Assembly (NCBI GenBank): GCA_947258755.1
Contig: CAMYJO010000004.1
Location: forward strand, 35,550 to 99,549
DNA length: 64,000 nt
Source: an uncultured Gammaproteobacteria bacterium
GTDB lineage: Bacteria; Pseudomonadota; Gammaproteobacteria; JAADHQ01
Reading direction: 5' to 3'
A program made the translations under genes and the position numbers. The notes under the pieces were generated by a model. That model was not told where the DNA came from and did not search any database. It saw nothing but the letters and a program-made list of their open reading frames with translations. Shown here piece after piece: positions 33,903-44,029 of the stretch; positions within the stretch are counted from its first letter, which is position 1; the number at the start of each line of letters is the position of its first letter.

Positions 33903-35756
33903 CTATTTCTTATCACCACTCAAAGCCAGCGCCTCAGTCATCGCCAGGATATGAGTCGCATACCAGAAGTTGTCTGTTTTCAGGGTATTATGCCCGCGAT
34001 TCAGGGCACTGCGGGCCTGCGCCAACATCGGCTCATCATTCTTTATCCGCGCCAGCGCCAGCGTGACCCGTATCAGTGTCGCCGAAGCCGATGGCATCGG
34101 CCCGTCAGCAATAATGGCCTCGCGTGATGAGATCCCGGCGATCATGTCTTCAGATAATAACCATCCCTGCTCATTATAAAAGCGTTTCCATGCCTGCCCC
34201 ACTACAGCTGCTACTAAACTTATATCTTCCTTTTTACCGGTATGTTTGGCCCAGGCAAGCAGACCTGCAGCGACATAGGAATAATCTTCCAGCGTGGCAT
34301 TACCGAGGTATTGATCATCGGCAATCGCCCTTTTCAGGCTCTGGCCGTCCCATAATCGTTGCACGATAAAATCACGTAAGACCTGCGCCTTTTTCATGTA
34401 TGCCTTGTTGTATCGACCGGCCCGCGTCAACGCATCCAGGGCCAGACCATTCCATGCAGCGAGCAACTTGTCATCGCGCGGTAATATCCTGCGTTGTTGC
34501 CTTTTTAGCAACTTTGTCTTGGCTGTAGCGATCGACTGCTTGATTACCGCAACAGGCTTATTCATCTCTTTTGCCAGCTCGTCTACTGACATGGCTATTT
34601 GCGCATGATGACCATCCTCCAGGCTGGGTGCATGCTGCATACCCCAATGCAACGTCATCAACTCAAGCTCGGCAGGTGTGAGCAATGCCTTCAATTCCTG
34701 ATCCGACCATAAATAATAACCACCCTCGACATTCTTGTTATCGATCGCAGACAGACTACTTATCAGACCACCCGCGGGCTCTGATAACTCCTTCAACATA
34801 AAGTCAACGGTCTGTGTCGCGATAATCTGGTATTCGCTTTTACCCAATAACTCAGCCGCTTCAACATACAGACTGACCAGCTGGGCATTGTCATAAAGCA
34901 TTTTTTCAAAATGCGGAATTTTCCAGCCGGGGTCGACGACATAGCGGTAAAAGCCACCTCGCAACTGGTCATTCATACCCTGCAGTGCCATTTTATCCAG
35001 GGTCAGGATCAGGAAATCACGCAGAGACTTGTCTTTTGTCTCTCGATATAGATCCAACAATAGAGTCAGCTGCGGCACCAACGGAAATTTATTGCCCTCA
35101 CCAAAGCCTCCCTGGAAATGATCAGCCTGCTGCATCGCCAATGTCATATAGGCCTTACGATAGGCCTCGATCTGACGCATATCCAGGTCGGGGCCTGCGG
35201 AACGATCGGTTTTGTCATTCACCATTGCTGCCGCTTCGGCCATCACTTTCATACCCGGCCTGTCCGCCACCCAGGCCTGCTGGATATTCAGCAACAATTC
35301 GTTGAAATCTTTCGGGGGTAAATACACAAGACCCAACAACGGGTAACCTTCGGGGGTAATAAAGACATTCAAAGGCCAACCGGCATAACCACGTGTCCTT
35401 TCGACAAATTCGATCAGGCGTGCATCCAATGCCGGTTGCAACTCCCGATCGACCTTGACCGGAATAAAGTCACGGTTCAGCATCTTGGCAATGTCGGCAT
35501 TTTGATAAGACTCACGCTGCATCACATGGCACCAGTGACAGGCAAAATAGCCAATGGACACAAACACCAGCTTGTTTTCCTTGCGCGCGCGTTCAAATAC
35601 CTTTTTATCCCAGCTTTGCCAGTGCACCGGATCGTTTCCATGCATGGCCAGATAAGGAGATGGATGGTCTTTCAGACTGTTGCTACCGGCTGCCAGGCAA
35701 TGAGCCGATAATGCAACTAAGCATATCGATGTGAACAGGTAGTTTAAGATTTTCAT
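33903..35756 (-). CDS. thioredoxin-domain YyaL/DUF255 protein with signal peptide
   Basis: SPYL..H..DPVHW, CHWCHVM, GWPLN, PHFEKMLYDNAQ; start moved to ATG 35756. Confidence 0.88.
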   Translation of the reverse strand: MKILNYLFTSICLVALSAHCLAAGSNSLKDHPSPYLAMHGNDPVHWQSWDKKVFERARKENKLVFVSIGYFACHWCHVMQRESYQNADIAKMLNRDFIPVKVDRELQPALDARLIEFVERTRGYAGWPLNVFITPEGYPLLGLVYLPPKDFNELLLNIQQAWVADRPGMKVMAEAAAMVNDKTDRSAGPDLDMRQIEAYRKAYMTLAMQQADHFQGGFGEGNKFPLVPQLTLLLDLYRETKDKSLRDFLILTLDKMALQGMNDQLRGGFYRYVVDPGWKIPHFEKMLYDNAQLVSLYVEAAELLGKSEYQIIATQTVDFMLKELSEPAGGLISSLSAIDNKNVEGGYYLWSDQELKALLTPAELELMTLHWGMQHAPSLEDGHHAQIAMSVDELAKEMNKPVAVIKQSIATAKTKLLKRQQRRILPRDDKLLAAWNGLALDALTRAGRYNKAYMKKAQVLRDFIVQRLWDGQSLKRAIADDQYLGNATLEDYSYVAAGLLAWAKHTGKKEDISLVAAVVGQAWKRFYNEQGWLLSEDMIAGISSREAIIADGPMPSASATLIRVTLALARIKNDEPMLAQARSALNRGHNTLKTDNFWYATHILAMTEALALSGDKK

Positions 35757-35897
35757 GAATTCCCCGATTGCTGGCAGTGATTCTATATAGAACGTCTTTA
35801 CAGTGAAAAAATTCCATTTATTTTCGGTTTTATGGGTAGTTTCTTCACTTGGGCTTTGAATGGTATACACAGACAATCTACCGAATGAGGGTCGAGA

Positions 35898-36091
35898 TGT
35901 GCATGAAAGCATAGTTTGGCCGTATTAGCCTGACTATAGGTACTTAAAGGGGCAGTTAGGCCGCTACCGACCAGCATCGGTCTTACAAGAACATTGTCAT
36001 TGCGAACGCCGTGAAGCAATCCGTCAAACTATTTATCCGGCTTGTTTTCTGTCTGGGTAGCTTCACAAGCAGATCGCCGCGGCAAAAAAAA
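35898..36091. repeat. composite intergenic repeat, copy 2 (3'-truncated)
   Basis: TGTGCATGAAAGCATAGTTTGGCCG; TTGTCATTGCGAACG..GTGAAGCAATC.GTCAAA; CAGATCGCCGCGG; lacks the closing CTCGCGATGAC. Confidence 0.75.
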
Positions 36092-36121
36092 GACAGCTTA
36101 TTTATGCGTCAAATGCTGGCC

Positions 36122-37672
36122 CTATTGGTCCATTGAATTAACAAAACCCGAGTATCTAACACCAGACAACAATGCCATTTCATGATGCCAGGTCGCAAGA
36201 TCATCCTTATTGAATTGATTTAATGCATCATGACCACAGGCTCGCGCCATCACTTGCATGAGTGATTGAGAAGCAGTGAAAAAATTATTCAATTGAGATG
36301 CTGATTTTTCTACATCCAGTTTTTTACGTAGCTCCTCTTTTTGAGTAGCTATACCTGCTGGACAGTTATTGGTATTACACATACGAGCAGCCACACAACC
36401 AATGGCTTGCATCGCACTATTTGATATTGCAATACCATCAGCACCCAGCGCCATTGCTTTTACAAAATCAATTGGCACGCGTAACCCGCCGGTTATAATT
36501 AGGGTGACACGACCACTGGCACCCTGCTCATCTAAGTATCGACGTGCTCGCGCAAGTGCAGGGATAGTTGGCACACTAATATGATTCCTGAATATTTCAG
36601 GCGCAGCTCCAGTGCCCCCACCTCGACCATCTAATATGATGTAGTCAGCGCTCGCATCAAGTGCAAACTGAATATCTCTTTCAATATGATTAGCACTTAG
36701 TTTGAATCCAATAGGAATGCCGCCTGTAATTTCTCTGACACGATCTGCAAAACGTTTAAAATCTGATGCTGTAGAAAGATCTTTAAAAGTAGGTGGTGAT
36801 ATTGCAGGCTGACCTTCTGGTATATTTCTAACTTGAGAAATTTTTCCTATATTCTTGCTTCCGGGAAGGTGGCCACCAGTCCCCGTTTTCGCACCTTGCC
36901 CACCCTTGAAGTGAAAGGCTTGAACCTTTTGTAGCAATTCTTCCCTGTAACCGAATTGAGCACTGGCTAATTCGTAAAAATAACGTGAATTCTCTGCTTG
37001 CTCCTCAGGTAACATCCCGCCCTCACCAGAACAAATGCCGGTACCTGAAAGCTCAGCCCCTCGCGCCAAAGCGACTTTCGCTTCTTCTGACAAGGAACCA
37101 AAACTCATGTCGGATACAAATAAGGGAATCTGCAACGTTAAAGGCTTTTTTGTTTCCGGCCCTATAACGAGCTCAGTAGACACATTATGATCTTCCATCA
37201 GGGGCTTGGTTGCCATCTGCGCTACCATTAATTGAAGATCATCCCAATGGGGTAATTCATGACGAGGCACACCCATAGAGGTCATCGGGCCGTGATGACC
37301 GATATTCTTCAGCCCTTCTTTTGCTAACTGATGAATGAATTCAACGGTAGGTTCCTCAGTCGTAGCAACTGCAATGGGAATATCCGTTTTCTGTGTTTCT
37401 ATACCTGGACCTTCTTTACCCACTTGATCATCGCTAAACTTTTGATGCGTACCATCACAAAAAGGCCTATTCCCACTATGCTTACATGCACATAAATAAG
37501 CATCACCATCTTCTTCGGAAACGATTACCTTCGGATTAAATGATGTTCCAGCATGTGAGCCATCGCAAAATGGCTGACTTTTAGATCGCCCGCAAGTACA
37601 AAAATGATATTCCTGACCTTTTGAAAGAGTCACTTTAACTGGTTTATTATCTGCAATGATGGGATTACTCAT
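36122..37672 (-). CDS. FMN-binding glutamate synthase-family protein with two N-terminal CDGSH Fe-S domains
   Basis: CTCGRSKSQPFCDGSH and CACKHSGNRPFCDGTH; MSFGSLS, SGEGG, QGAK.G.GG.LPG, DGRGGGTGA, C..ARMC.TNNCPAGIATQ. Confidence 0.88.
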   Translation of the reverse strand: MSNPIIADNKPVKVTLSKGQEYHFCTCGRSKSQPFCDGSHAGTSFNPKVIVSEEDGDAYLCACKHSGNRPFCDGTHQKFSDDQVGKEGPGIETQKTDIPIAVATTEEPTVEFIHQLAKEGLKNIGHHGPMTSMGVPRHELPHWDDLQLMVAQMATKPLMEDHNVSTELVIGPETKKPLTLQIPLFVSDMSFGSLSEEAKVALARGAELSGTGICSGEGGMLPEEQAENSRYFYELASAQFGYREELLQKVQAFHFKGGQGAKTGTGGHLPGSKNIGKISQVRNIPEGQPAISPPTFKDLSTASDFKRFADRVREITGGIPIGFKLSANHIERDIQFALDASADYIILDGRGGGTGAAPEIFRNHISVPTIPALARARRYLDEQGASGRVTLIITGGLRVPIDFVKAMALGADGIAISNSAMQAIGCVAARMCNTNNCPAGIATQKEELRKKLDVEKSASQLNNFFTASQSLMQVMARACGHDALNQFNKDDLATWHHEMALLSGVRYSGFVNSMDQ

Positions 37673-37691
37673 ATTTCCACTCTCATAGGAT

Positions 37692-37757
37692 GCATAACGT
37701 TTGAGTTAAAAGGCGCTGCGCTTTATGCGACGTCCATTTTTGAACGACTTGTTATGT
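37692..37757 (-). other. attC site
   Basis: Minus strand ACATAAC-AAGTCGTTCAA...TTAACTCAAAC-GTTATGC. Confidence 0.88.
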
Positions 37758-38082
37758 GATTTTGCTTTATTACAACAACTAATAATCCCATTGCTATTAA
37801 TGTAACAGCTGAAACCGCATAGTTACCCTCTAAAATAAGTAATATTAGAGATATACCAAATGTTACGATAACCGTAATTGCACCATAGACGCGTGTTTTG
37901 AGAATAACCATTAGGATACCGCCGACAACTTGAATAACCCCAAAGATAATTAACATTAAATTATTGAAGCCATATTTACCAAAGAAATCGAGATCTTGTG
38001 GCATAAGCATAATTTTTGTAATTCCAGATGAGATAGCTAAGAAAACTAAAAGGCCTATAATTATTTTAATTGCGATTTTCAT
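37723..38082 (-). CDS. DoxX-like membrane protein (cassette)
   Basis: SGITKI, FGKYG, four hydrophobic segments; reads into its attC. Confidence 0.7.
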   Translation of the reverse strand: MKIAIKIIIGLLVFLAISSGITKIMLMPQDLDFFGKYGFNNLMLIIFGVIQVVGGILMVILKTRVYGAITVIVTFGISLILLILEGNYAVSAVTLIAMGLLVVVIKQNHITSRSKMDVA

Positions 38083-38113
38083 TTCACCTCCATGTTTATC
38101 AATTTTTATTTAC

Positions 38114-38174
38114 ACATAACGCCTAGTTAAGGGGCGCACGTTGTTTTGCGTCCCGTTTAAACGCCTTGTTGGGT
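38114..38174 (-). other. attC site
   Basis: Minus strand ACCCAAC-AAGGCGTTTAAACGGGACGC...GCGCCCCTTAACTAGGC-GTTATGT. Confidence 0.88.
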
Positions 38175-38180
38175 TGTTAA

Positions 38181-38720
38181 TTATAAACTCACGGTTGAGG
38201 CAGATGCCATTAGCCGTATGTTACCATCCTGTGAATTATCACTATTCGTAGTTAACTTAAAAAGCAGCCCCCTTTGTGTGCCCGCCTTGTACCACTGGTA
38301 GGTGATACTTCTAAGGTTAGCACTGTTTGGACCATGATTAAGCCTCTCAGAAATTAGAGGTGACGGTGCATTACCTACTAATTTTATAAAGCTTTTTTCT
38401 GCTGTGTCTAATTTACCTTGCTTAGAAAAGACAGCGCAAAAATTACTTTCTTTGTGTAATGAAAGAACATAATTTCCATGATTGGATGGAATTGGCCAAG
38501 CATTTCCTTCTTTACCACTTAAGAATAAAGCTGCTTTATCTGGAGGGAATTGAGGGGCTTTGGATAATTTATTTCTTAATGTTTCTATTTTATATAGATG
38601 CTTAAGGCATAAAGAAGAGTAAAGCTTTATAAACTCATTAGATTGTGCTGTGGAACTGGAAGCAAGCGAAGTGCTTATAGACGAAAAGAAAAATGCTATA
38701 TATATCAGAGTGTATTTCAT
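38181..38720 (-). CDS. secreted hypothetical protein, possibly NMCC_0638-like (cassette)
   Basis: Signal peptide, two Cys, FL.GKEGNAW, FCAVF; family recalled from memory. Confidence 0.6.
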   Translation of the reverse strand: MKYTLIYIAFFFSSISTSLASSSTAQSNEFIKLYSSLCLKHLYKIETLRNKLSKAPQFPPDKAALFLSGKEGNAWPIPSNHGNYVLSLHKESNFCAVFSKQGKLDTAEKSFIKLVGNAPSPLISERLNHGPNSANLRSITYQWYKAGTQRGLLFKLTTNSDNSQDGNIRLMASASTVSL

Positions 38721-38734
38721 TCTTTTCCTTTTAA

Positions 38735-38786
38735 ACCTAACAGTATGATAACCGAGACCCCGGGGTCTCGTTATTATGTTTTAGAA
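38735..38786 (-). other. atypical palindromic cassette recombination site A
   Basis: ACCTAAC-AGTATGATAAC-CGAGACCCCGGGGTCTCG-TTATTATGT-TTTAGAA. Confidence 0.75.
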
Positions 38787-38789
38787 GCT

Positions 38790-39074
38790 TTATTCACTTT
38801 TCGCTTCTTTGGCACGTTTTTCAGTATATTCAATGCATTTAGTTATTTCTTCTTTATCTAATTCCCCACCATTTTTTGATTTAAGATGCAGCTTTATATT
38901 TTTGTCATTTTCTTCAATTTGTAATGATTCTATTTTGTTGTATTCTTCTGTAGGGCATGAGCAACGCCCTTCCTTACACTCTTGAAATGCCTCAAGTAAT
39001 TCTTTCTTTTTGCTCTTTACATCGTTAATTGAAATATCAAGACCGCTATCATTTATATCGATTTTGTATTTCAT
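38790..39074 (-). CDS. hypothetical protein with CxxGxCxC motif (cassette)
   Basis: AFQECKEGRCSCP; AGGA RBS. Confidence 0.7.
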   Translation of the reverse strand: MKYKIDINDSGLDISINDVKSKKKELLEAFQECKEGRCSCPTEEYNKIESLQIEENDKNIKLHLKSKNGGELDKEEITKCIEYTEKRAKEAKSE

Positions 39075-39093
39075 GATTTTTTCCTTTGTGTAC

Positions 39094-39218
39094 TTCTAAC
39101 GTTGCCTTAAGCAGCCCGCGATCGAACGATAAGGGCTGCATTAATTATTATTGTTAATGTACTAGCATTTTCCGAAAGCGCTATGTCCCTGCGGGTCTGA
39201 TTGAAGACCTTGTTAGGC
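39094..39218 (-). other. attC site (125 bp)
   Basis: Minus strand GCCTAAC-AAGGTCTTCAATCAGACCCGC...CGCGGGCTGCTTAAGGCAAC-GTTAGAA. Confidence 0.85.
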
Positions 39219-39222
39219 GGTT

Positions 39223-39558
39223 TTACAATAAATTGATAATAATTGCTACCAAATTTAGAAGAAGAATAAGTAGCAATGTAGCCCTCGCTAACCTTAACGA
39301 TAATGCAGAAAATGCCATAGCTGCCAATATTTGTGCAAATTTTCCTATGAAAACACCGGGAAGTATTCCAAATGTGGATGCCAGCCATTGAACAACATAA
39401 TTTCTTTCAAACTGAATACCGTCTTGTTGCATAAATAATAGTGTTGTAACAAAGTCAAAAAAGCCAGTTACAAGAAGAATCAGCCATAAATACCAATACT
39501 GATGAAACGATGCCTTTAGATTATCTTTGAGCGGTATTTCTTCATCTAGAATGCGCAC
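39223..39558 (-). CDS. small membrane protein, DUF5658-like (cassette)
   Basis: DFVTT...ERN pattern with hydrophobic helices. Confidence 0.6.
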   Translation of the reverse strand: MRILDEEIPLKDNLKASFHQYWYLWLILLVTGFFDFVTTLLFMQQDGIQFERNYVVQWLASTFGILPGVFIGKFAQILAAMAFSALSLRLARATLLLILLLNLVAIIINLL

Positions 39559-39568
39559 TATCTATGCA

Positions 39569-39626
39569 ACCTAACGTTTGAGTTCAGCCGCCGGCCCAGC
39601 CGGTCGGCTGGAATGGCTTGTTAGGC
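39569..39626 (-). other. attC site (58 bp)
   Basis: Minus strand GCCTAAC-AAGCCATTCCAGCCGACCGG...CCGGCGGCTGAACTCAAAC-GTTAGGT. Confidence 0.9.
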
Positions 39627-40055
39627 GAAAATTTTATTTCCGTTTTCATTCATCCACTGCTCATATATTTGACCTGATTCCGGCGTTAACTCTTGCCCCA
39701 CTTCTTTGATTAAATCATCTTCAATCATATATCGTGCTTCTCCTTCTACGACAAGATCTGGCGCACCAGTTAATGTATATATAGCGCGCCATTTTCGATT
39801 TAGCCGATTACCTTCCACTCTAGGATCAGTCAAAGCAATTAGTGTTCTTGATCTAAATTTTCGATCAGTATTTTCCACACTCTCTTTTAAATGGTTGATA
39901 ATGTTTGCTGGGCCTTTCAACTTTCCTTTCTGTTCTCCTACGTCGAGATAGGTTGCATCGTCTGCAAAGTACTTTTCGAGCCTTGTCCAATCATCATCCA
40001 CGATTGTACGCTCAAAATCTGCCGCAAAATTTTCAAAGACTACTTTAATGTCCAT
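39621..40055 (-). CDS. NTF2/SnoaL-like protein (cassette)
   Basis: DW..LEKYFADDATY, G...I; stop codon lies inside attC R''. Confidence 0.7.
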   Translation of the reverse strand: MDIKVVFENFAADFERTIVDDDWTRLEKYFADDATYLDVGEQKGKLKGPANIINHLKESVENTDRKFRSRTLIALTDPRVEGNRLNRKWRAIYTLTGAPDLVVEGEARYMIEDDLIKEVGQELTPESGQIYEQWMNENGNKIFA

Positions 40056-40071
40056 AATTTCTATATTGTGC

Positions 40072-40155
40072 GCCTAACGCGCTAATAAGTGGCCGCCGCT
40101 TTTTGGCGGTCCAAGCCCACGCCTTTTGTGGGCGGACTTAATTTAATTGTTAGGC
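40072..40155 (-). other. attC site (84 bp, branched terminal structure)
   Basis: Minus strand GCCTAAC-AATTAAATTAAGT...ACTTATTAGCGC-GTTAGGC with two internal hairpins. Confidence 0.82.
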
Positions 40156-40157
40156 TT

Positions 40158-40511
40158 TTATATACTTTTTCCATCGAATATATCAATATGTAGTTCATTA
40201 GTATCTATGTTATCAATACAGCCTAAGTTTACCCTATAGTTGCCAGGTATACGCATAGTTTCATGGAATGGGTAGATTCCACATGTATTACAAAAATAAT
40301 GTTTGGCAACCTTTGTATCAAATTGATATACACTTAATACGTCTTGTTTAGCTTTTATTTCAATTTCTGCTGGTGTTAGAGTAAATTCGGACATAACAGC
40401 ACCTTTACGCCTGCATATTGAGCAATTACATCTTAAGCCGCTTTCGATTTTGTTATGTTCAAAAGAAAAATTGATATTTCCGCAATGACAGTTTCCCTTG
40501 TATTTGATCAT
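40158..40511 (-). CDS. GFA/CENP-V family zinc protein (cassette)
   Basis: GNCHCG, CNCSICRRKG, HYFCNTCG, VNLGC. Confidence 0.88.
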   Translation of the reverse strand: MIKYKGNCHCGNINFSFEHNKIESGLRCNCSICRRKGAVMSEFTLTPAEIEIKAKQDVLSVYQFDTKVAKHYFCNTCGIYPFHETMRIPGNYRVNLGCIDNIDTNELHIDIFDGKSI

Positions 40512-40528
40512 TATTTTTCCTTTAATGA

Positions 40529-40580
40529 GACTAAAAGTATGATAACCGAGACCCCGGGGTCTCGTTATCGTGTTTTAGGG
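40529..40580 (-). other. atypical palindromic cassette recombination site B
   Basis: GACTAAA-AGTATGATAAC-CGAGACCCCGGGGTCTCG-TTATCGTGT-TTTAGGG, nearly identical to site A. Confidence 0.75.
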
Positions 40581-40991
40581 ATTGTTTTCCCCAATGCACG
40601 TTGCACATTCCATTACCGATGGATCGTTGCTCCATGCGAGGATCTTTTTCCGCCCTTCTTCAAGAAGTACAAACAGCTGTTCCGAGAACTCTGGGATTGG
40701 GCGATTCTTAATGAGATTTTCTTGTTTCCAGTACCTGTCTCTGCCGCGATCCTGAGAAGCGCACAACCATAGATTAAACGTGAGCAGGTCCTCGGACGCT
40801 AGATAGAGTTGGATTAGACAGCGGACATTATTGTTATTCCAGAGCATAGACCTTTCAGGCCAATCCTTTTGGTTTCGGGTTACCTCCAAGCCGTTAGATG
40901 CCGCGAATTCGCTTATTATTGAATCCACAGCAAGCAATGGCATTTCCATCTTTTGCCACTGTTGTTCATTGAAGTAGCCGCAGTTTGCCAT
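40575..40991 (-). CDS. hypothetical protein (first cassette)
   Basis: 138-aa ORF between core GTTAGGG (41008-41002) and inverse core CCCTAAA. Confidence 0.7.
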   Translation of the reverse strand: MANCGYFNEQQWQKMEMPLLAVDSIISEFAASNGLEVTRNQKDWPERSMLWNNNNVRCLIQLYLASEDLLTFNLWLCASQDRGRDRYWKQENLIKNRPIPEFSEQLFVLLEEGRKKILAWSNDPSVMECATCIGENNP

Positions 40992-41001
40992 TCTTTTTTA
41001 C

Positions 41002-41119
41002 CCCTAACAGTTGCATTAACGAGACCCCTTGTCTCGTTATACATTTTATCGAGACCTCGATGTACCATTATTTTCTATTGTATTTAAATAATATAACCAT
41101 TTTCTGTCCCGTTATACAT
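41002..41119 (-). other. attI-like site at the array head with four TAACGAGAC-like boxes
   Basis: CCCTAAC-AGTTGCATTAAC-GAGACCCCTTGTCTCGTTATACATTTTA; further boxes at 41047-41056 and 41106-41119. Confidence 0.6.
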
Positions 41120-41317
41120 CTCAGGAAAACGTGACAGGTCAAACTTATGATTTTTTTATATAAATATGTGAATATCGGCGATTAAGCACATATGCCGAGT
41201 GTAGCTTCGGGTCAAATACCGCGACATCATATTTCAATATAAACGAACACTTTCAGTATTGTCGGCCATAATCTTTGTGCAAAATTGCCACGCTATGGTT
41301 ACAAACACAGATAGAAT

Positions 41318-42307
41318 TTAGCCCTTCAGCAAATACTCCAATGCCGGCTGCATACGCTTGACACAAGCATAGCCTTCATCGATTGCGACACCGGCCTCAT
41401 CAAAATCCATCAGCCCCATTGTCGACAGCCTTGGCGCTATAATGATATCCGGCGGGTCTCCTGCCATGCGACTGCGGGTGATGCGGTCCTGCATGATATT
41501 GATCGAGCTTGCCAGCACATCAAACAAACCGGGTGAATCCGCATTTTCGCCAAACAGGCGAGATAACAGGATGTCCTTATGATTACTCAGACTAGTCTTT
41601 AATTGTGATGACACCCTGTCCCATAGCGCGCTGCCTTGCTGCACATCTGTTTCCGTTGTACTTTCCGTTGATGCATCATCATCGCGAAAGTGTTTACCAA
41701 CAATTTCACCATTCAGGTTAACGGCAATGACGACATCGGCCCCCATCGCCCGACATAGGGATACCGGCACCGGGTTAGACAGGCCTCCGTCCACCAACCA
41801 CTGCTCGTGCATCTTGAACGGGGTAAACACACCCGGCAAGGCGACCGATGCACGCACAGCATCCAGCACGGGCCCATCCTGAAACCAAACCTCTTGGCCG
41901 CTTTGTAAATTAGTAGCGACGGCACCGAAACGCCGAGGTAATGCATCGATGCTATCTATATTGATATAGTGCCGGGCAAGTTCAACCAATTTATCGCCAT
42001 GGATAAATCCGCCGCCAAGCACAGACAGGTCGATGTAATTGATGATCTCCTTCCATTGGAGAGTACGCGCCCATTGCTCCATTGCATCGATTTGTTCGCA
42101 GGCATAGGCCGCACCGATAAAAGCCCCTACCGAACTGCCGGCAACAACATGCGGCTCTATACCAATATTCTTCAGCGCCTGGATAACCCCGATATGCGCC
42201 CAGCCACGCGCCGAGCCGCTACCCAGGGCAAGTCCGATACAACGACCTTCGCTTTTACATTTTTCAAGTTGCATCGTTTTAAGCTTACCTGAGTGTTGAT
42301 TATTCAA
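41318..42307 (-). CDS. patatin-like phospholipase (RssA family)
   Basis: LGSGSARGWAHIG, GSSVG, VDGG. Confidence 0.9.
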   Translation of the reverse strand: MNNQHSGKLKTMQLEKCKSEGRCIGLALGSGSARGWAHIGVIQALKNIGIEPHVVAGSSVGAFIGAAYACEQIDAMEQWARTLQWKEIINYIDLSVLGGGFIHGDKLVELARHYINIDSIDALPRRFGAVATNLQSGQEVWFQDGPVLDAVRASVALPGVFTPFKMHEQWLVDGGLSNPVPVSLCRAMGADVVIAVNLNGEIVGKHFRDDDASTESTTETDVQQGSALWDRVSSQLKTSLSNHKDILLSRLFGENADSPGLFDVLASSINIMQDRITRSRMAGDPPDIIIAPRLSTMGLMDFDEAGVAIDEGYACVKRMQPALEYLLKG

Positions 42308-42361
42308 TGATACGGCATATGAAAAATGCGTCTTAGATAAATCGAGGCGCAGCCATATGCT

Positions 42362-43936
42362 CTATATAGCCGGCATCAGCATGCCCCGAATGGTAAAAAA
42401 TATCATGGCAGCCATCAGTGCTGATGCCGGCACCGTAATAACCCAGGCCAGTACAATTTTCAACAAACTGGTTCGCTTGACCAGCTCCATGCGGTAGGCG
42501 CGGCGTAGCCCCTTGCGTTCACGATTAGTGATGCCGGTACTCTCAGATGTTTGCTTCAGTTCCTTTAGCATGACACCTTTGTCTACAACTGAAGCCTGTT
42601 CGAACTTAAGCAAAAAGCTGTCGACCGCCTCTTTGTTCTGACCTTCATGGTGATGACGAATTTCAGCGAGCATCTGTGCGTAGTTGCTCTTGATAAATTC
42701 GCGCAAAAAGCCGACGCCAAATATACCGCCCACTGCTATGTGGGTAGAACTGACCGGTAGGCCGAGCTGACTGGCTATAATAACCGTTATAGCGGCCGCC
42801 ATGGCGACACAGAAGGCACGACTCTTATCAAGCTCTGTGATTTGAGAGCCTACCGTCCGTATCAATCTGGGTCCATACAGCGCCAGCCCGATTGCAATAC
42901 CGATTGCACCTATCAACATCACCCAAATAGGTATGGCTGCTTTTTTGGCAATGCCACCACTCTGGATTGCATCGTTGATGGCAGCCAGCGGCCCGACGGC
43001 GTTGGCCACATCATTGGCGCCATGGGCAAAACTAAGCAGGGCTGCTGCAAAAATCAGTGGGATCGTGAACAGACTGTTGACGGCTGATTTGCTATTGGGC
43101 AATGTATGCTGACGTCGCTTGATCCAATATTGAACCGCAAAATAAACCACTACTGCGACAGCAAAGCCAACTATCAGCGCTTCGCTGAAGCCGAATTTCC
43201 AAAGTTTCTTCAAACCCTTCAGCATTAGATAAGTACTAAAGGTCCAGGCCATCAAACCGACCAGTATAGGCACCATGCGTTTTGCCGCCAGCTTCATATC
43301 CTGTCGATACATGATGGTGCGTTTGATGATAAACAGAAACAACGCGGCGATGATGCCGCCCAGGACAGGTGATATTACCCAGCTGGCTGCGATGGCACCC
43401 ATCGTTTTCCATTCCGCGATCGCAAATCCACCTGCGGCTATTCCGGCACCCAGAACACCGCCAACGATGGAATGCGTTGTCGACACCGGAGCACTCAGGT
43501 AGGTTGCGATATTCAGCCAGATAGCGGCAGCCAGTAAAGCGGCAAGCATAAGCCAGATAAACGTGTCCTGATCACCGATTTGCGCCGGATCGATAATATC
43601 CTTTTTAATCGTACCAACGACATCGCCCCCGGCTATCAATGCACCTGACGCTTCGAATATCGCAGCAATAATAATCGCGCCGGTCATGGTCAGCGCCTTG
43701 GAGCCCACTGCAGGACCAACATTATTGGCGACATCGTTGGCGCCGATATTCATGGCCATGTATCCACCGATGACAGCCGCAACAATTAATATCGTATGAC
43801 CGGATATACTACTGGCACTCATCGTGGTAAATAATATGATGCCCAGCATGAACAGCATCCCTACGCCTATGCGATAAAGATCACTGCGCTCAAAGCCTGT
43901 GGCTTTCTTTTTTCTACGGGGATTTATTATTTTCAT
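42362..43936 (-). CDS. PiT-family inorganic phosphate transporter
   Basis: Two GANDVAN motifs and two PVS(T/S)TH motifs. Confidence 0.92.
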   Translation of the reverse strand: MKIINPRRKKKATGFERSDLYRIGVGMLFMLGIILFTTMSASSISGHTILIVAAVIGGYMAMNIGANDVANNVGPAVGSKALTMTGAIIIAAIFEASGALIAGGDVVGTIKKDIIDPAQIGDQDTFIWLMLAALLAAAIWLNIATYLSAPVSTTHSIVGGVLGAGIAAGGFAIAEWKTMGAIAASWVISPVLGGIIAALFLFIIKRTIMYRQDMKLAAKRMVPILVGLMAWTFSTYLMLKGLKKLWKFGFSEALIVGFAVAVVVYFAVQYWIKRRQHTLPNSKSAVNSLFTIPLIFAAALLSFAHGANDVANAVGPLAAINDAIQSGGIAKKAAIPIWVMLIGAIGIAIGLALYGPRLIRTVGSQITELDKSRAFCVAMAAAITVIIASQLGLPVSSTHIAVGGIFGVGFLREFIKSNYAQMLAEIRHHHEGQNKEAVDSFLLKFEQASVVDKGVMLKELKQTSESTGITNRERKGLRRAYRMELVKRTSLLKIVLAWVITVPASALMAAMIFFTIRGMLMPAI

Positions 43937-44029
43937 TATTTGCCTTTTTATACGAGGCCTCTGGCCTCAGAGAAAAAGCATACGGACTTAAACGTTACTA
44001 CTACTTATTATATTTACAACGGTTAAGAA

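Follow-up and report, generated by a model that had tools for sequence, protein, structure and literature searches.

Gene cassettes in which attC is replaced by a piece of attI (delta-attI cassettes) are known from integrons of classes 1 and 2. Passages of PMC12901181 describe such cassettes as functional and explain them with a model of secondary crossover, for which Partridge 2000/2009 is cited there. The same passages present attI-derived cassette ends as rare oddities of clinical integrons: they concerned 110 of 1742 integrons, mostly as attI fragments of 14-18 nt, with one fragment of 244 nt and one cassette flanked by full attI1. The attI1 site itself is described, in part of the literature, as a simple site (L/R) accompanied by the direct repeats DR1 and DR2. 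How a cassette acquires its attC is an open question in integron biology, and a passage of PMC8352920 treats the mechanism by which cassettes natively arise as unknown.

We analyzed a 64,000-nt stretch of contig CAMYJO010000004.1 from an uncultured gammaproteobacterium (hereafter the window), which carries an integron cassette array without an integrase gene at 37692-41150. The array contains eight short sites, the number given in the original prediction, which had been made from the letters of the window: five ordinary attC sites, two 52-bp sites named P1 and P2, and a site at the head of the array named H (Table 1). Seven cassettes remain. P1 and P2 stand at cassette ends in the orientation of attC, their outer boxes are complementary as in a cassette, the homology of one orthologous cassette with a relative of these sites stops at AA|C, and they are homologous to attI. 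With a probability of about three in four, we read P1 and P2 as attI-derived substitutes of attC, resembling delta-attI ends, which would belong to a distinct lineage of the integron integrase IntI, and the window array as the wreck of an integron.

The two sites are built on an 18-bp perfect palindrome, which occurs exactly twice in the window (38753-38770 and 40547-40564). Only 0.02 matches were expected by chance, and none of 100 shuffles reached two. P1 and P2 were 94% identical in a 48-nt stretch (38737-38784 vs 40531-40578). The repeat has a third copy at the head site (40996-41028), which has diverged further. H has the same arms, TAACGAGAC and GTCTCGTTA, and the same flanks, AACAG.. 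and ..ACATTTT. The near identity of the two palindromic sites, noticed in the original prediction, was thus confirmed by reading and by repeat search, and so was their relation to the head site, which extends to 41053.

The ends of P1 are ACCTAAC (38735-38741) and TTTAGAA (38780-38786), and those of P2 are GACTAAA (40529-40535) and TTTAGGG (40574-40580). In the sense of the open reading frames (ORFs), which is the minus strand, both sites begin with ..TAAA, and the inner box ends in AAA, not in AAC, in P1, P2 and H. The replacement of TAAC by TAAA that had been predicted is therefore real. So is the predicted complementarity between the 5' core of each cassette and its own 3' inverse core: the P1 box TTTAGAA matched the left box TTCTAAC (39094-39100) of canonical attC 'c' at six of six positions, and the P2 box TTTAGGG matched CCCTAAC (41002-41008) of H, also at six of six. 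The crossover of P1 is expected at 38740|38741 on the plus strand (AA|C), where its crossover box reads GTTAGGT. P2 departs from this in a point that the original prediction had not made: in ORF sense its crossover-side box is TTTAGTC, in which T replaces the conserved G (A at 40535 on the plus strand, where C is conserved). By the published 'identical first nucleotide' rule, P2 may be a poor recombination partner and could lock the first cassette in place. The predicted fold of P2 had an energy of -12 kcal/mol (z -4.0).

The identity of H followed from its flank. Window positions 40994-41150 aligned over their full length with 16 terminal-site (attI-type) regions of other genomes, with homology beginning at the AAC of the left box. 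The aligned features were the hairpin, the AGACCTC block, a TATA.CAC block, the second half-site copy and CGTGACA, and many different genomes have a common right flank resembling the sequence to the right of H. A search for related sites beside an integrase gene, suggested along with the original prediction, was successful in other genomes. In record L082 an IntI ORF of 336 aa (TIGR02249, 384 bits) starts about 110 nt past the site. By tblastn, the site is likewise followed by a full-length intI in L035 and L076, by a stump of 160 aa in L027, and by short remnants in L107, L131, L133, L111 and L142. H and its flank were also homologous to the regions adjoining intI pseudogenes in L027 and L168. 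Ca. Tenderia electrophaga has the same arrangement on CP013100.1, a complete mobilizable plasmid, where the annotated integrase ALP54998.1 follows the site. Apart from this plasmid, the hosts in which an H-like attI/promoter region adjoins intI were Ca. Thiodiazotropha and metagenome-assembled genomes (MAGs) of Sedimenticolaceae. In the window, tblastn with the IntI of this lineage found nothing, and the ATG is kept at the place where intI begins in relatives. By homology, H plus 41054-41150 is the attI/promoter region of an integron platform whose intI has been lost by deletion here. The absence of intI inside the array is a likeness to clusters of attC sites lacking an integron integrase (CALIN). 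Unlike these, the window array keeps a recognizable attI and promoter region, which marks it as a decayed complete integron and not as a detached cluster. It is orphaned and probably frozen, with a relic of attI.

The attI of this lineage consists of a 9-bp inverted repeat, TAACGAGAC / GTCTCGTTA, with a loop of 4-5 nt, and a further half-site copy about 75 bp nearer intI. It resembles the attI1 of class 1 integrons in lying between the cassettes and a divergent intI, in its R box GTTRRRY, and in having extra repeated motifs upstream. The L box of attI1 also ends in TAAA (CCCTAAA), as does the inner box of the sites described here. There is, however, no sequence similarity to attI1, and in place of its repeats we found a foldable inverted repeat and one distal copy about 75 bp away, all of them putative IntI-binding motifs. 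The integrases beside the palindromic attI were 72-95% identical to one another and 42-48% identical to the three IntIs of genus g1 that were compared, one of which is encoded by the sole intI of the host genome. The idea that a different tyrosine recombinase shares the array holds in a narrower sense, in which the cognate enzyme would be an integron integrase of another lineage. The companion idea of a palindromic attI that doubles as a cassette-borne site was supported by the homology of the flank of H to intI regions and by membership of one family, but P1 and P2 are not copies of the local H.

Some features of the platform were observed in passing. The record L173 (CP013100.1 76104-88160) holds a complete integron of the lineage, with integrase, hairpin attI, three sites of the P1/P2 kind and one canonical site. 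It is interleaved with transposase genes, and the record annotates just an 'integrase' and hypothetical proteins. In many independent records (L027, L107, L131, L133, L142, L168 and the window) intI was truncated, frameshifted or deleted with the attI region kept, which suggests that in this lineage the integrase often decays and the platform is kept. The distal half-site copy (41104-41119) has the form CTGT-N8-ACAT and lies about 30-45 nt upstream of the intI start in relatives. The same 14-16 nt form the right arm and spacer of the hairpin (41029-41044 in H), and cassette-borne copies would carry CTGT-N8-ACAT too. We take this form to resemble the pattern of an SOS (LexA) box.

Relatives of P1 and P2, here called P-type sites, were collected by a scan for the stem pattern in one genome per species. 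It returned at least 129 stretches in 135 distinct contexts, and the family counts below apply among the matches listed. An AACAG-type left flank was the ground for keeping 83 contexts. The other 52 were dropped as unrelated (for example in Mycolicibacterium) or as too near to contig ends. The kept sites were mostly from Ca. Thiodiazotropha, Sedimenticolaceae, Ectothiorhodospiraceae, Thiogranum and other gammaproteobacterial MAGs, often with several sites per locus at distances of 430-1200 bp. In ORF sense the family layout is NNNTAAA, a spacer of 5-6 nt, a 9-bp arm, a loop of 4-5 nt, a 9-bp arm, a spacer of 6-8 nt, and GTTANNN. The inner box ended in A instead of C in 81 of 83 sites, and 80 of 83 kept the C (bottom strand) of the crossover box. 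Sites with the perfect palindrome, such as P1 and P2, are called type A, and sites with the hairpin of H are called type B and measure 51 bp.

Two covariance models were built by ourselves: R1 from 81 sites of this family in other genomes only, and R2 from 19 canonical attC sites. These were preferred to three attC finders based on regular expressions or folding, which were too noisy or missed known sites. In the window R1 matched H, P1 and P2 (Table 1), and besides these only the reverse strand of the H stem-loop (21.4 bits). R2 recovered all five canonical attC sites of the window and scored 23-61 bits at canonical sites elsewhere that had not been used for training. It gave no match at P1, P2 or H at E<=10, and the possibility, raised with the original prediction, that the sites score as ordinary attC was not borne out under this home-made model. 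A scan of 36000-42000 against Rfam matched no family.

The P-type sites shared several properties with canonical attC. They lie 3' of a promoterless ORF, and their outer boxes are complementary once the cassette is circular. With the exception of P2 they have the crossover box GTTRRRY with the boundary G|TT (AA|C on the bottom strand). They form an imperfect hairpin with an unpaired spacer, and they coexist and exchange neighbors with ordinary attC sites. They differ from canonical attC in being 51-52 bp long (part of the literature gives a range of 57-141 bp), in the inner box TAAA, in the lack of a conserved extrahelical G, and in a stem conserved in sequence across hosts. A single bulged base stands on the arm opposite that of the canonical extrahelical G (the 5' arm of the bottom strand). 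This base is C in P1 and P2, while relatives have T or A or lack it, whereas the canonical sites of the same arrays carry the usual extra G, CTT(G)A. The predicted folds combine a tight hairpin with a short R box and an asymmetric internal loop, at z-scores of -4 to -6. As a separate observation, some members have the loop or the whole hairpin inverted inside unchanged flanks (L068 1481-1539 vs 2672-2730; also L061, L104, L117 and L149). In one array the loop reads CCGCT in one site and AGCGG in another, and it looks as if the palindrome flips.

The behavior of P-type sites at cassette ends was examined in the collected records. Of 45 right flanks and 45 left flanks, 38 and 41, respectively, had their longest frame antisense to the TAAC->TTTA reading of the site. 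An exact complement of the 6-nt box was found 100-1500 nt upstream for 32 of 42 internal sites, involving 16 different boxes. The same search on the wrong side succeeded for 7 of 42, with permuted boxes in 365 of 2527 (14%), and within the same site in 2 of 66. The records L040 and L134 carried an orthologous cassette of 81-85% identity, whose common unit consisted of core, box and ORF. Homology stopped at the ..TAA|C of the next site. One record has a canonical attC there and the other a P-type site, with unrelated neighbors downstream. This pair indicated that a P-type site serves its ORF as 3' site, with the crossover at the canonical position. A model of reversed orientation, in which the crossover falls at the TTTA box and the hairpin travels upstream of the ORF, was rejected because in this pair the core lies 3' of the ORF and a canonical attC stands upstream in one record. 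The IntI of the lineage would presumably recombine P-type sites at the canonical G|TT.

Internal sites tended to follow the attI of their own array. When 41-nt cores were compared in seven arrays, 17 of 21 internal sites best matched the attI of the same array, 13 of them at 98-100%. Core variants differed between arrays, and the two arrays of genome G063 each had their own matching pair. Arrays at this attI were mixed: one in G064 held four P-type and four or five canonical sites, and the Tenderia plasmid three and one. On a metagenome contig with a type-A array, five internal sites were seen and four compared. At its end stands a type-A attI, next to an intI pseudogene that is truncated and frameshifted. 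Both this array and the Tenderia plasmid were among the seven. The cores of P1 and P2 were 93% and 90% identical to the type-A attI seen elsewhere, and 79% and 74% identical to the local H. Since they are closer to the type-A attI, the two cassettes would have been imported. The best reading of these identities is that the cassettes of P1 and P2 originated at a type-A attI in another place, from which they later reached the window array.

An origin of P-type sites in attI would account for their construction. A P-type site would be composed of a cassette-specific 6-nt box (NNNTAA in ORF sense, complementary to the first six bases of the cassette) and a copy of about 45 nt of attI, namely the last ~45 nt of the lineage attI, ending at the crossover G. 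On the plus strand the junction reads core-T|TTANNN in internal sites, and core-T|ATAGCA, core-T|GTAGCT or core-T|GTAGTT in attI sites. The comparison places the meeting point of cassette-specific and attI-like sequence right after NNNTAA, with the odd A as a base of attI, as expected from the secondary-crossover model of delta-attI cassettes (Partridge 2000, cited in PMC12901181). Such a site could arise if IntI made a crossover between a secondary site inside attI (T|ATAG.. or T|GTAG.. on the plus strand) and the R'' box of the ordinary attC of the first cassette. The excised circle would then carry the attI core in place of the attC body. This route accounts for TAAA, because NNNTAA would come from the old R'' and the A from attI, and also for the inherited box complementarity, the mixed arrays and the internal sites nearly identical to their own attI. 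We tentatively consider it the likeliest origin of P-type sites, at no better than an even chance.

Going one step further, the attI of the lineage could act as a template, with which IntI re-tails the newest cassette by adding a 45-nt copy of attI, so that attI and cassette sites evolve in concert within each array. We hold this proposal a little more hesitantly than the route itself. The top strand carries AAA instead of AAC, so only the bottom strand has a cleavable AAC. The orientation of recombination could thus be set by sequence and not by extrahelical bases, with the top-strand AAA a poor partner for AAC sites by the rule of Frumerie et al. If true, P-type sites would represent a natural route of genesis of cassette recombination sites that is traceable in sequence, with a strand choice made by AAC versus AAA.

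The delta-attI cassettes in passages of PMC12901181 are a close parallel: they, too, carry the 3' end of attI, as far as the crossover G, in place of attC, they stand in mixed arrays, and the same origin is proposed for them. The present sites differ from them in carrying a hairpin module of about 45 nt, in keeping the box complementarity, and in forming a whole family in many environmental genomes, often as half of an array. Near-identical sites after unrelated ORFs are also a property of the homogeneous attC sites of sedentary chromosomal integrons (e.g. Vibrio repeats). Unlike those, the present family includes attI itself and shares arrays with heterogeneous canonical attC sites. Full-text searches of the literature turned up no attI-homologous attC family, no integrons of Ca. 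Tenderia and no such sites in sulfur-oxidizing symbionts, but they did turn up the work on delta-attI cassettes of clinical integrons.

The descent may also have run in the opposite direction. P-type sites would then be an old, self-standing family of folded attC, one of which became fixed beside intI as the attI of the lineage. The array-specific identity would come from gene conversion or host-specific cassette genesis, and not from copying of attI. The sites do fold into an R box and a 9-bp stem with a small loop, and they have an asymmetric internal loop. Box complementarity and the AA|C boundary are attC traits, homogeneous attC sites within one host are well known, and the platform contains a second half-site copy, as though duplicated. 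However, this explanation leaves the A in place of the conserved C unexplained, at the exact base where cassette-specific sequence meets attI-like sequence. No compensatory change was found in the stem, and the bulge is variable (C, T, A or none) and lies on the arm opposite the canonical extrahelical G. Conversion over just 41 nt would also have to be very efficient to leave 13 of 21 sites at 98% or more. We consider this direction rather unlikely.

A second alternative concerns the state of the substrate. P-type sites might be recombined unfolded, as double strands and in a sequence-specific manner like attI, in reactions of the attI x attI type. Both arms of the stem were invariant in sequence across distant hosts: a flank-anchored scan gave seven one-mismatch variants and no alternative stem, 16 variants occurred among the model matches, and the changes were on one side only. 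These one-sided changes lean, weakly, towards sequence-specific recognition. The third copy of the motif in the platform recalls the extra IntI-binding repeats of attI1, and a passage of PMC12901181 reports excision at >97% for class 1 cassettes with attI1 on both sides. On the other hand, some of the invariance was forced by the search pattern. The geometry of the inverted repeat, the loops of 4-5 nt and the fold z-scores of -4 to -6 look like those of a hairpin substrate, and P-type sites co-reside and swap neighbors with ordinary attC sites, which would need attC x P reactions. Recombination through the duplex is therefore a doubtful explanation.

Several points weigh against the derivation of P1 and P2 from attI. 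The changes in the 9-bp stem were one-sided only, with no compensated pair, so folding has no support from covariation and the box complementarity may be simply inherited. The requirement of the stem pattern in the collection scans biased what was fetched, which makes stem invariance weak evidence. The mismatch of P1 and P2 to H means that the local link between attI and attC is one of family, not of local descent. The IntI of the lineage was not found in this genome, where present activity is hypothetical. The cassette boundaries rest on the single orthologous pair of L040 and L134, and tblastx found no pair of cassettes with the same ORF of which one ends in a canonical attC and the other in a P-type site. 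The comparison records were mostly MAG contigs, their arrays often run off contig ends, and the covariance models were home-made.

In the host genome, six sites of the palindromic family were found in 3.2 Mb (three on contig C4, two on C25 and one on C14), all of them in cassette arrays. Genome-wide occurrence outside arrays, which had been envisaged together with the original prediction, was thus not found, and because the palindrome is rare and confined to cassette arrays it is not a dispersed repetitive extragenic palindromic (REP) element. An element unrelated to integrons, whether REP-like, the operator of a dimeric regulator or a terminator between cassettes, would suit a perfect 18-bp palindrome, typical of operators, and a plus-strand hairpin followed by a T-rich run, but is extremely improbable, being contradicted by this distribution, the fixed orientation to the ORFs, the outer boxes that obey the cassette rule, the homologues adjoining intI and, for a terminator, the position of the T run on the strand antisense to the ORFs.

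The sole integron integrase of the genome is on contig C41 (455 bits against a cut-off of 265). It was 43% identical to the IntI of the palindromic-attI lineage and adjoins an unrelated attI. Upstream of this intI, and likewise of intI in the four other genomes of the genus, lay a different attI without the palindrome. A sample of 60 relatives showed the stem pattern in no more than two, both among the four other genomes of the same genus. There the sites lie between cassette ORFs, one of them in mid-array between canonical attC sites, which indicates that the H-type variant also occurs away from array heads. No overlap was found between the ends of the intI contig C41 and the array contig C25. 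A blastn comparison of window 35000-44000 with the loci of the genus returned the sites themselves only, with no synteny to date the loss of intI. The platform region had no match in the phage collection, and a look-up of public sequencing runs for 38000-41300 listed none.

The P-type family consists of recognizable attI copies that track the attI of their own array, and it occurs together with ordinary attC sites in at least seven arrays, one of them on a complete mobilizable plasmid. These sites hint at how new cassettes get recombination sites, and the proposed genesis step can be tested directly with defined components (integrase, attI and cassette). The family breaks three supposed rules of attC: the AAC in R'', the extrahelical G and the minimum of 57 bp. 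Integron finders based on attC models may therefore miss such sites, and undercount cassettes or split arrays in these marine sulfur-oxidizing bacteria.

Table 1. Sites, cassette ORFs and platform remains of the window array (positions in the window; R1 and R2, covariance models of P-type sites and of canonical attC)
Feature	Position	Strand	Remarks
Canonical attC 'a'	37692..37757	-	downstream of DoxX-like ORF 37723-38082; R2 53.4 bits; boxes TAAC...GTTA
Canonical attC 'b'	38114..38174	-	cassette orf179, 38181-38720; R2 39.2 bits
P1, 52-bp attI-like cassette site, type A	38735..38786	-	3' of orf94; R1 34.5 bits; no R2 match
orf94, cassette ORF served by P1	38790..39074	-	no Pfam family
Canonical attC 'c'	39094..39218	-	cassette orf111; R2 35.3 bits
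Canonical attC 'd'	39569..39626	-	SnoaL-like cassette 39621-40055; R2 46.1 bits
Canonical attC 'e'	40072..40155	-	GFA-family (Pfam) cassette 40158-40511; R2 59.4 bits
P2, 52-bp attI-like cassette site, type A	40529..40580	-	3' of orf138; R1 26.2 bits; no R2 match
orf138, first cassette ORF, served by P2	40575..40991	-	no Pfam family
H, attI core (by homology) of lost integron platform, type B hairpin site	41002..41053	-	R1 64.0 bits; primary crossover 41007|41008
Rest of platform	41054..41150	+	AGACCTC block; second half-site copy GTCCCGTTATACAT 41106-41119; ATG 41147-41149

Other arrays of the host genome were noted. At C25:55800-60228 (L009) an array cut off by the contig end mixes two P-type sites with canonical attC sites, and it contains two small neighboring ORFs that resemble a toxin-antitoxin pair by appearance. 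One P-type and one canonical site were present at C14:118615-119816 (L156), and three canonical sites each at C20:88-1127 and C28:41301-43500.

The integron integrases of the genus (G000 C41:11000-12392, equal to L001 1498-2892, minus strand; L020 and L021) have open frames of 464-486 aa. Their extra ~150 N-terminal residues resemble a second core-binding domain of the family Phage_int_SAM_4 (E 5e-6 in G003, 0.047 in G000). This similarity would make the IntI of the genus an integrase with a tandem N-terminal domain.

In the surroundings of the window array, all ORFs across 36122-40991 are on the minus strand. To the right of H, about 270 non-coding bases are followed by a convergent patatin-like gene and, farther on, by housekeeping genes (PHO4, TatC, His). 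On its left the array is followed by a glutamate-synthase-like/CDGSH gene and a gene for a DUF255 thioredoxin-like protein. The former (36122-37672, minus strand) encodes a protein of 516 aa with glutamate-synthase and CDGSH domains and stands directly past the last canonical attC, and downstream of the gene itself no attC was detected. The gene would be either an unusually large terminal cassette that has lost its site or the chromosomal edge of the array.

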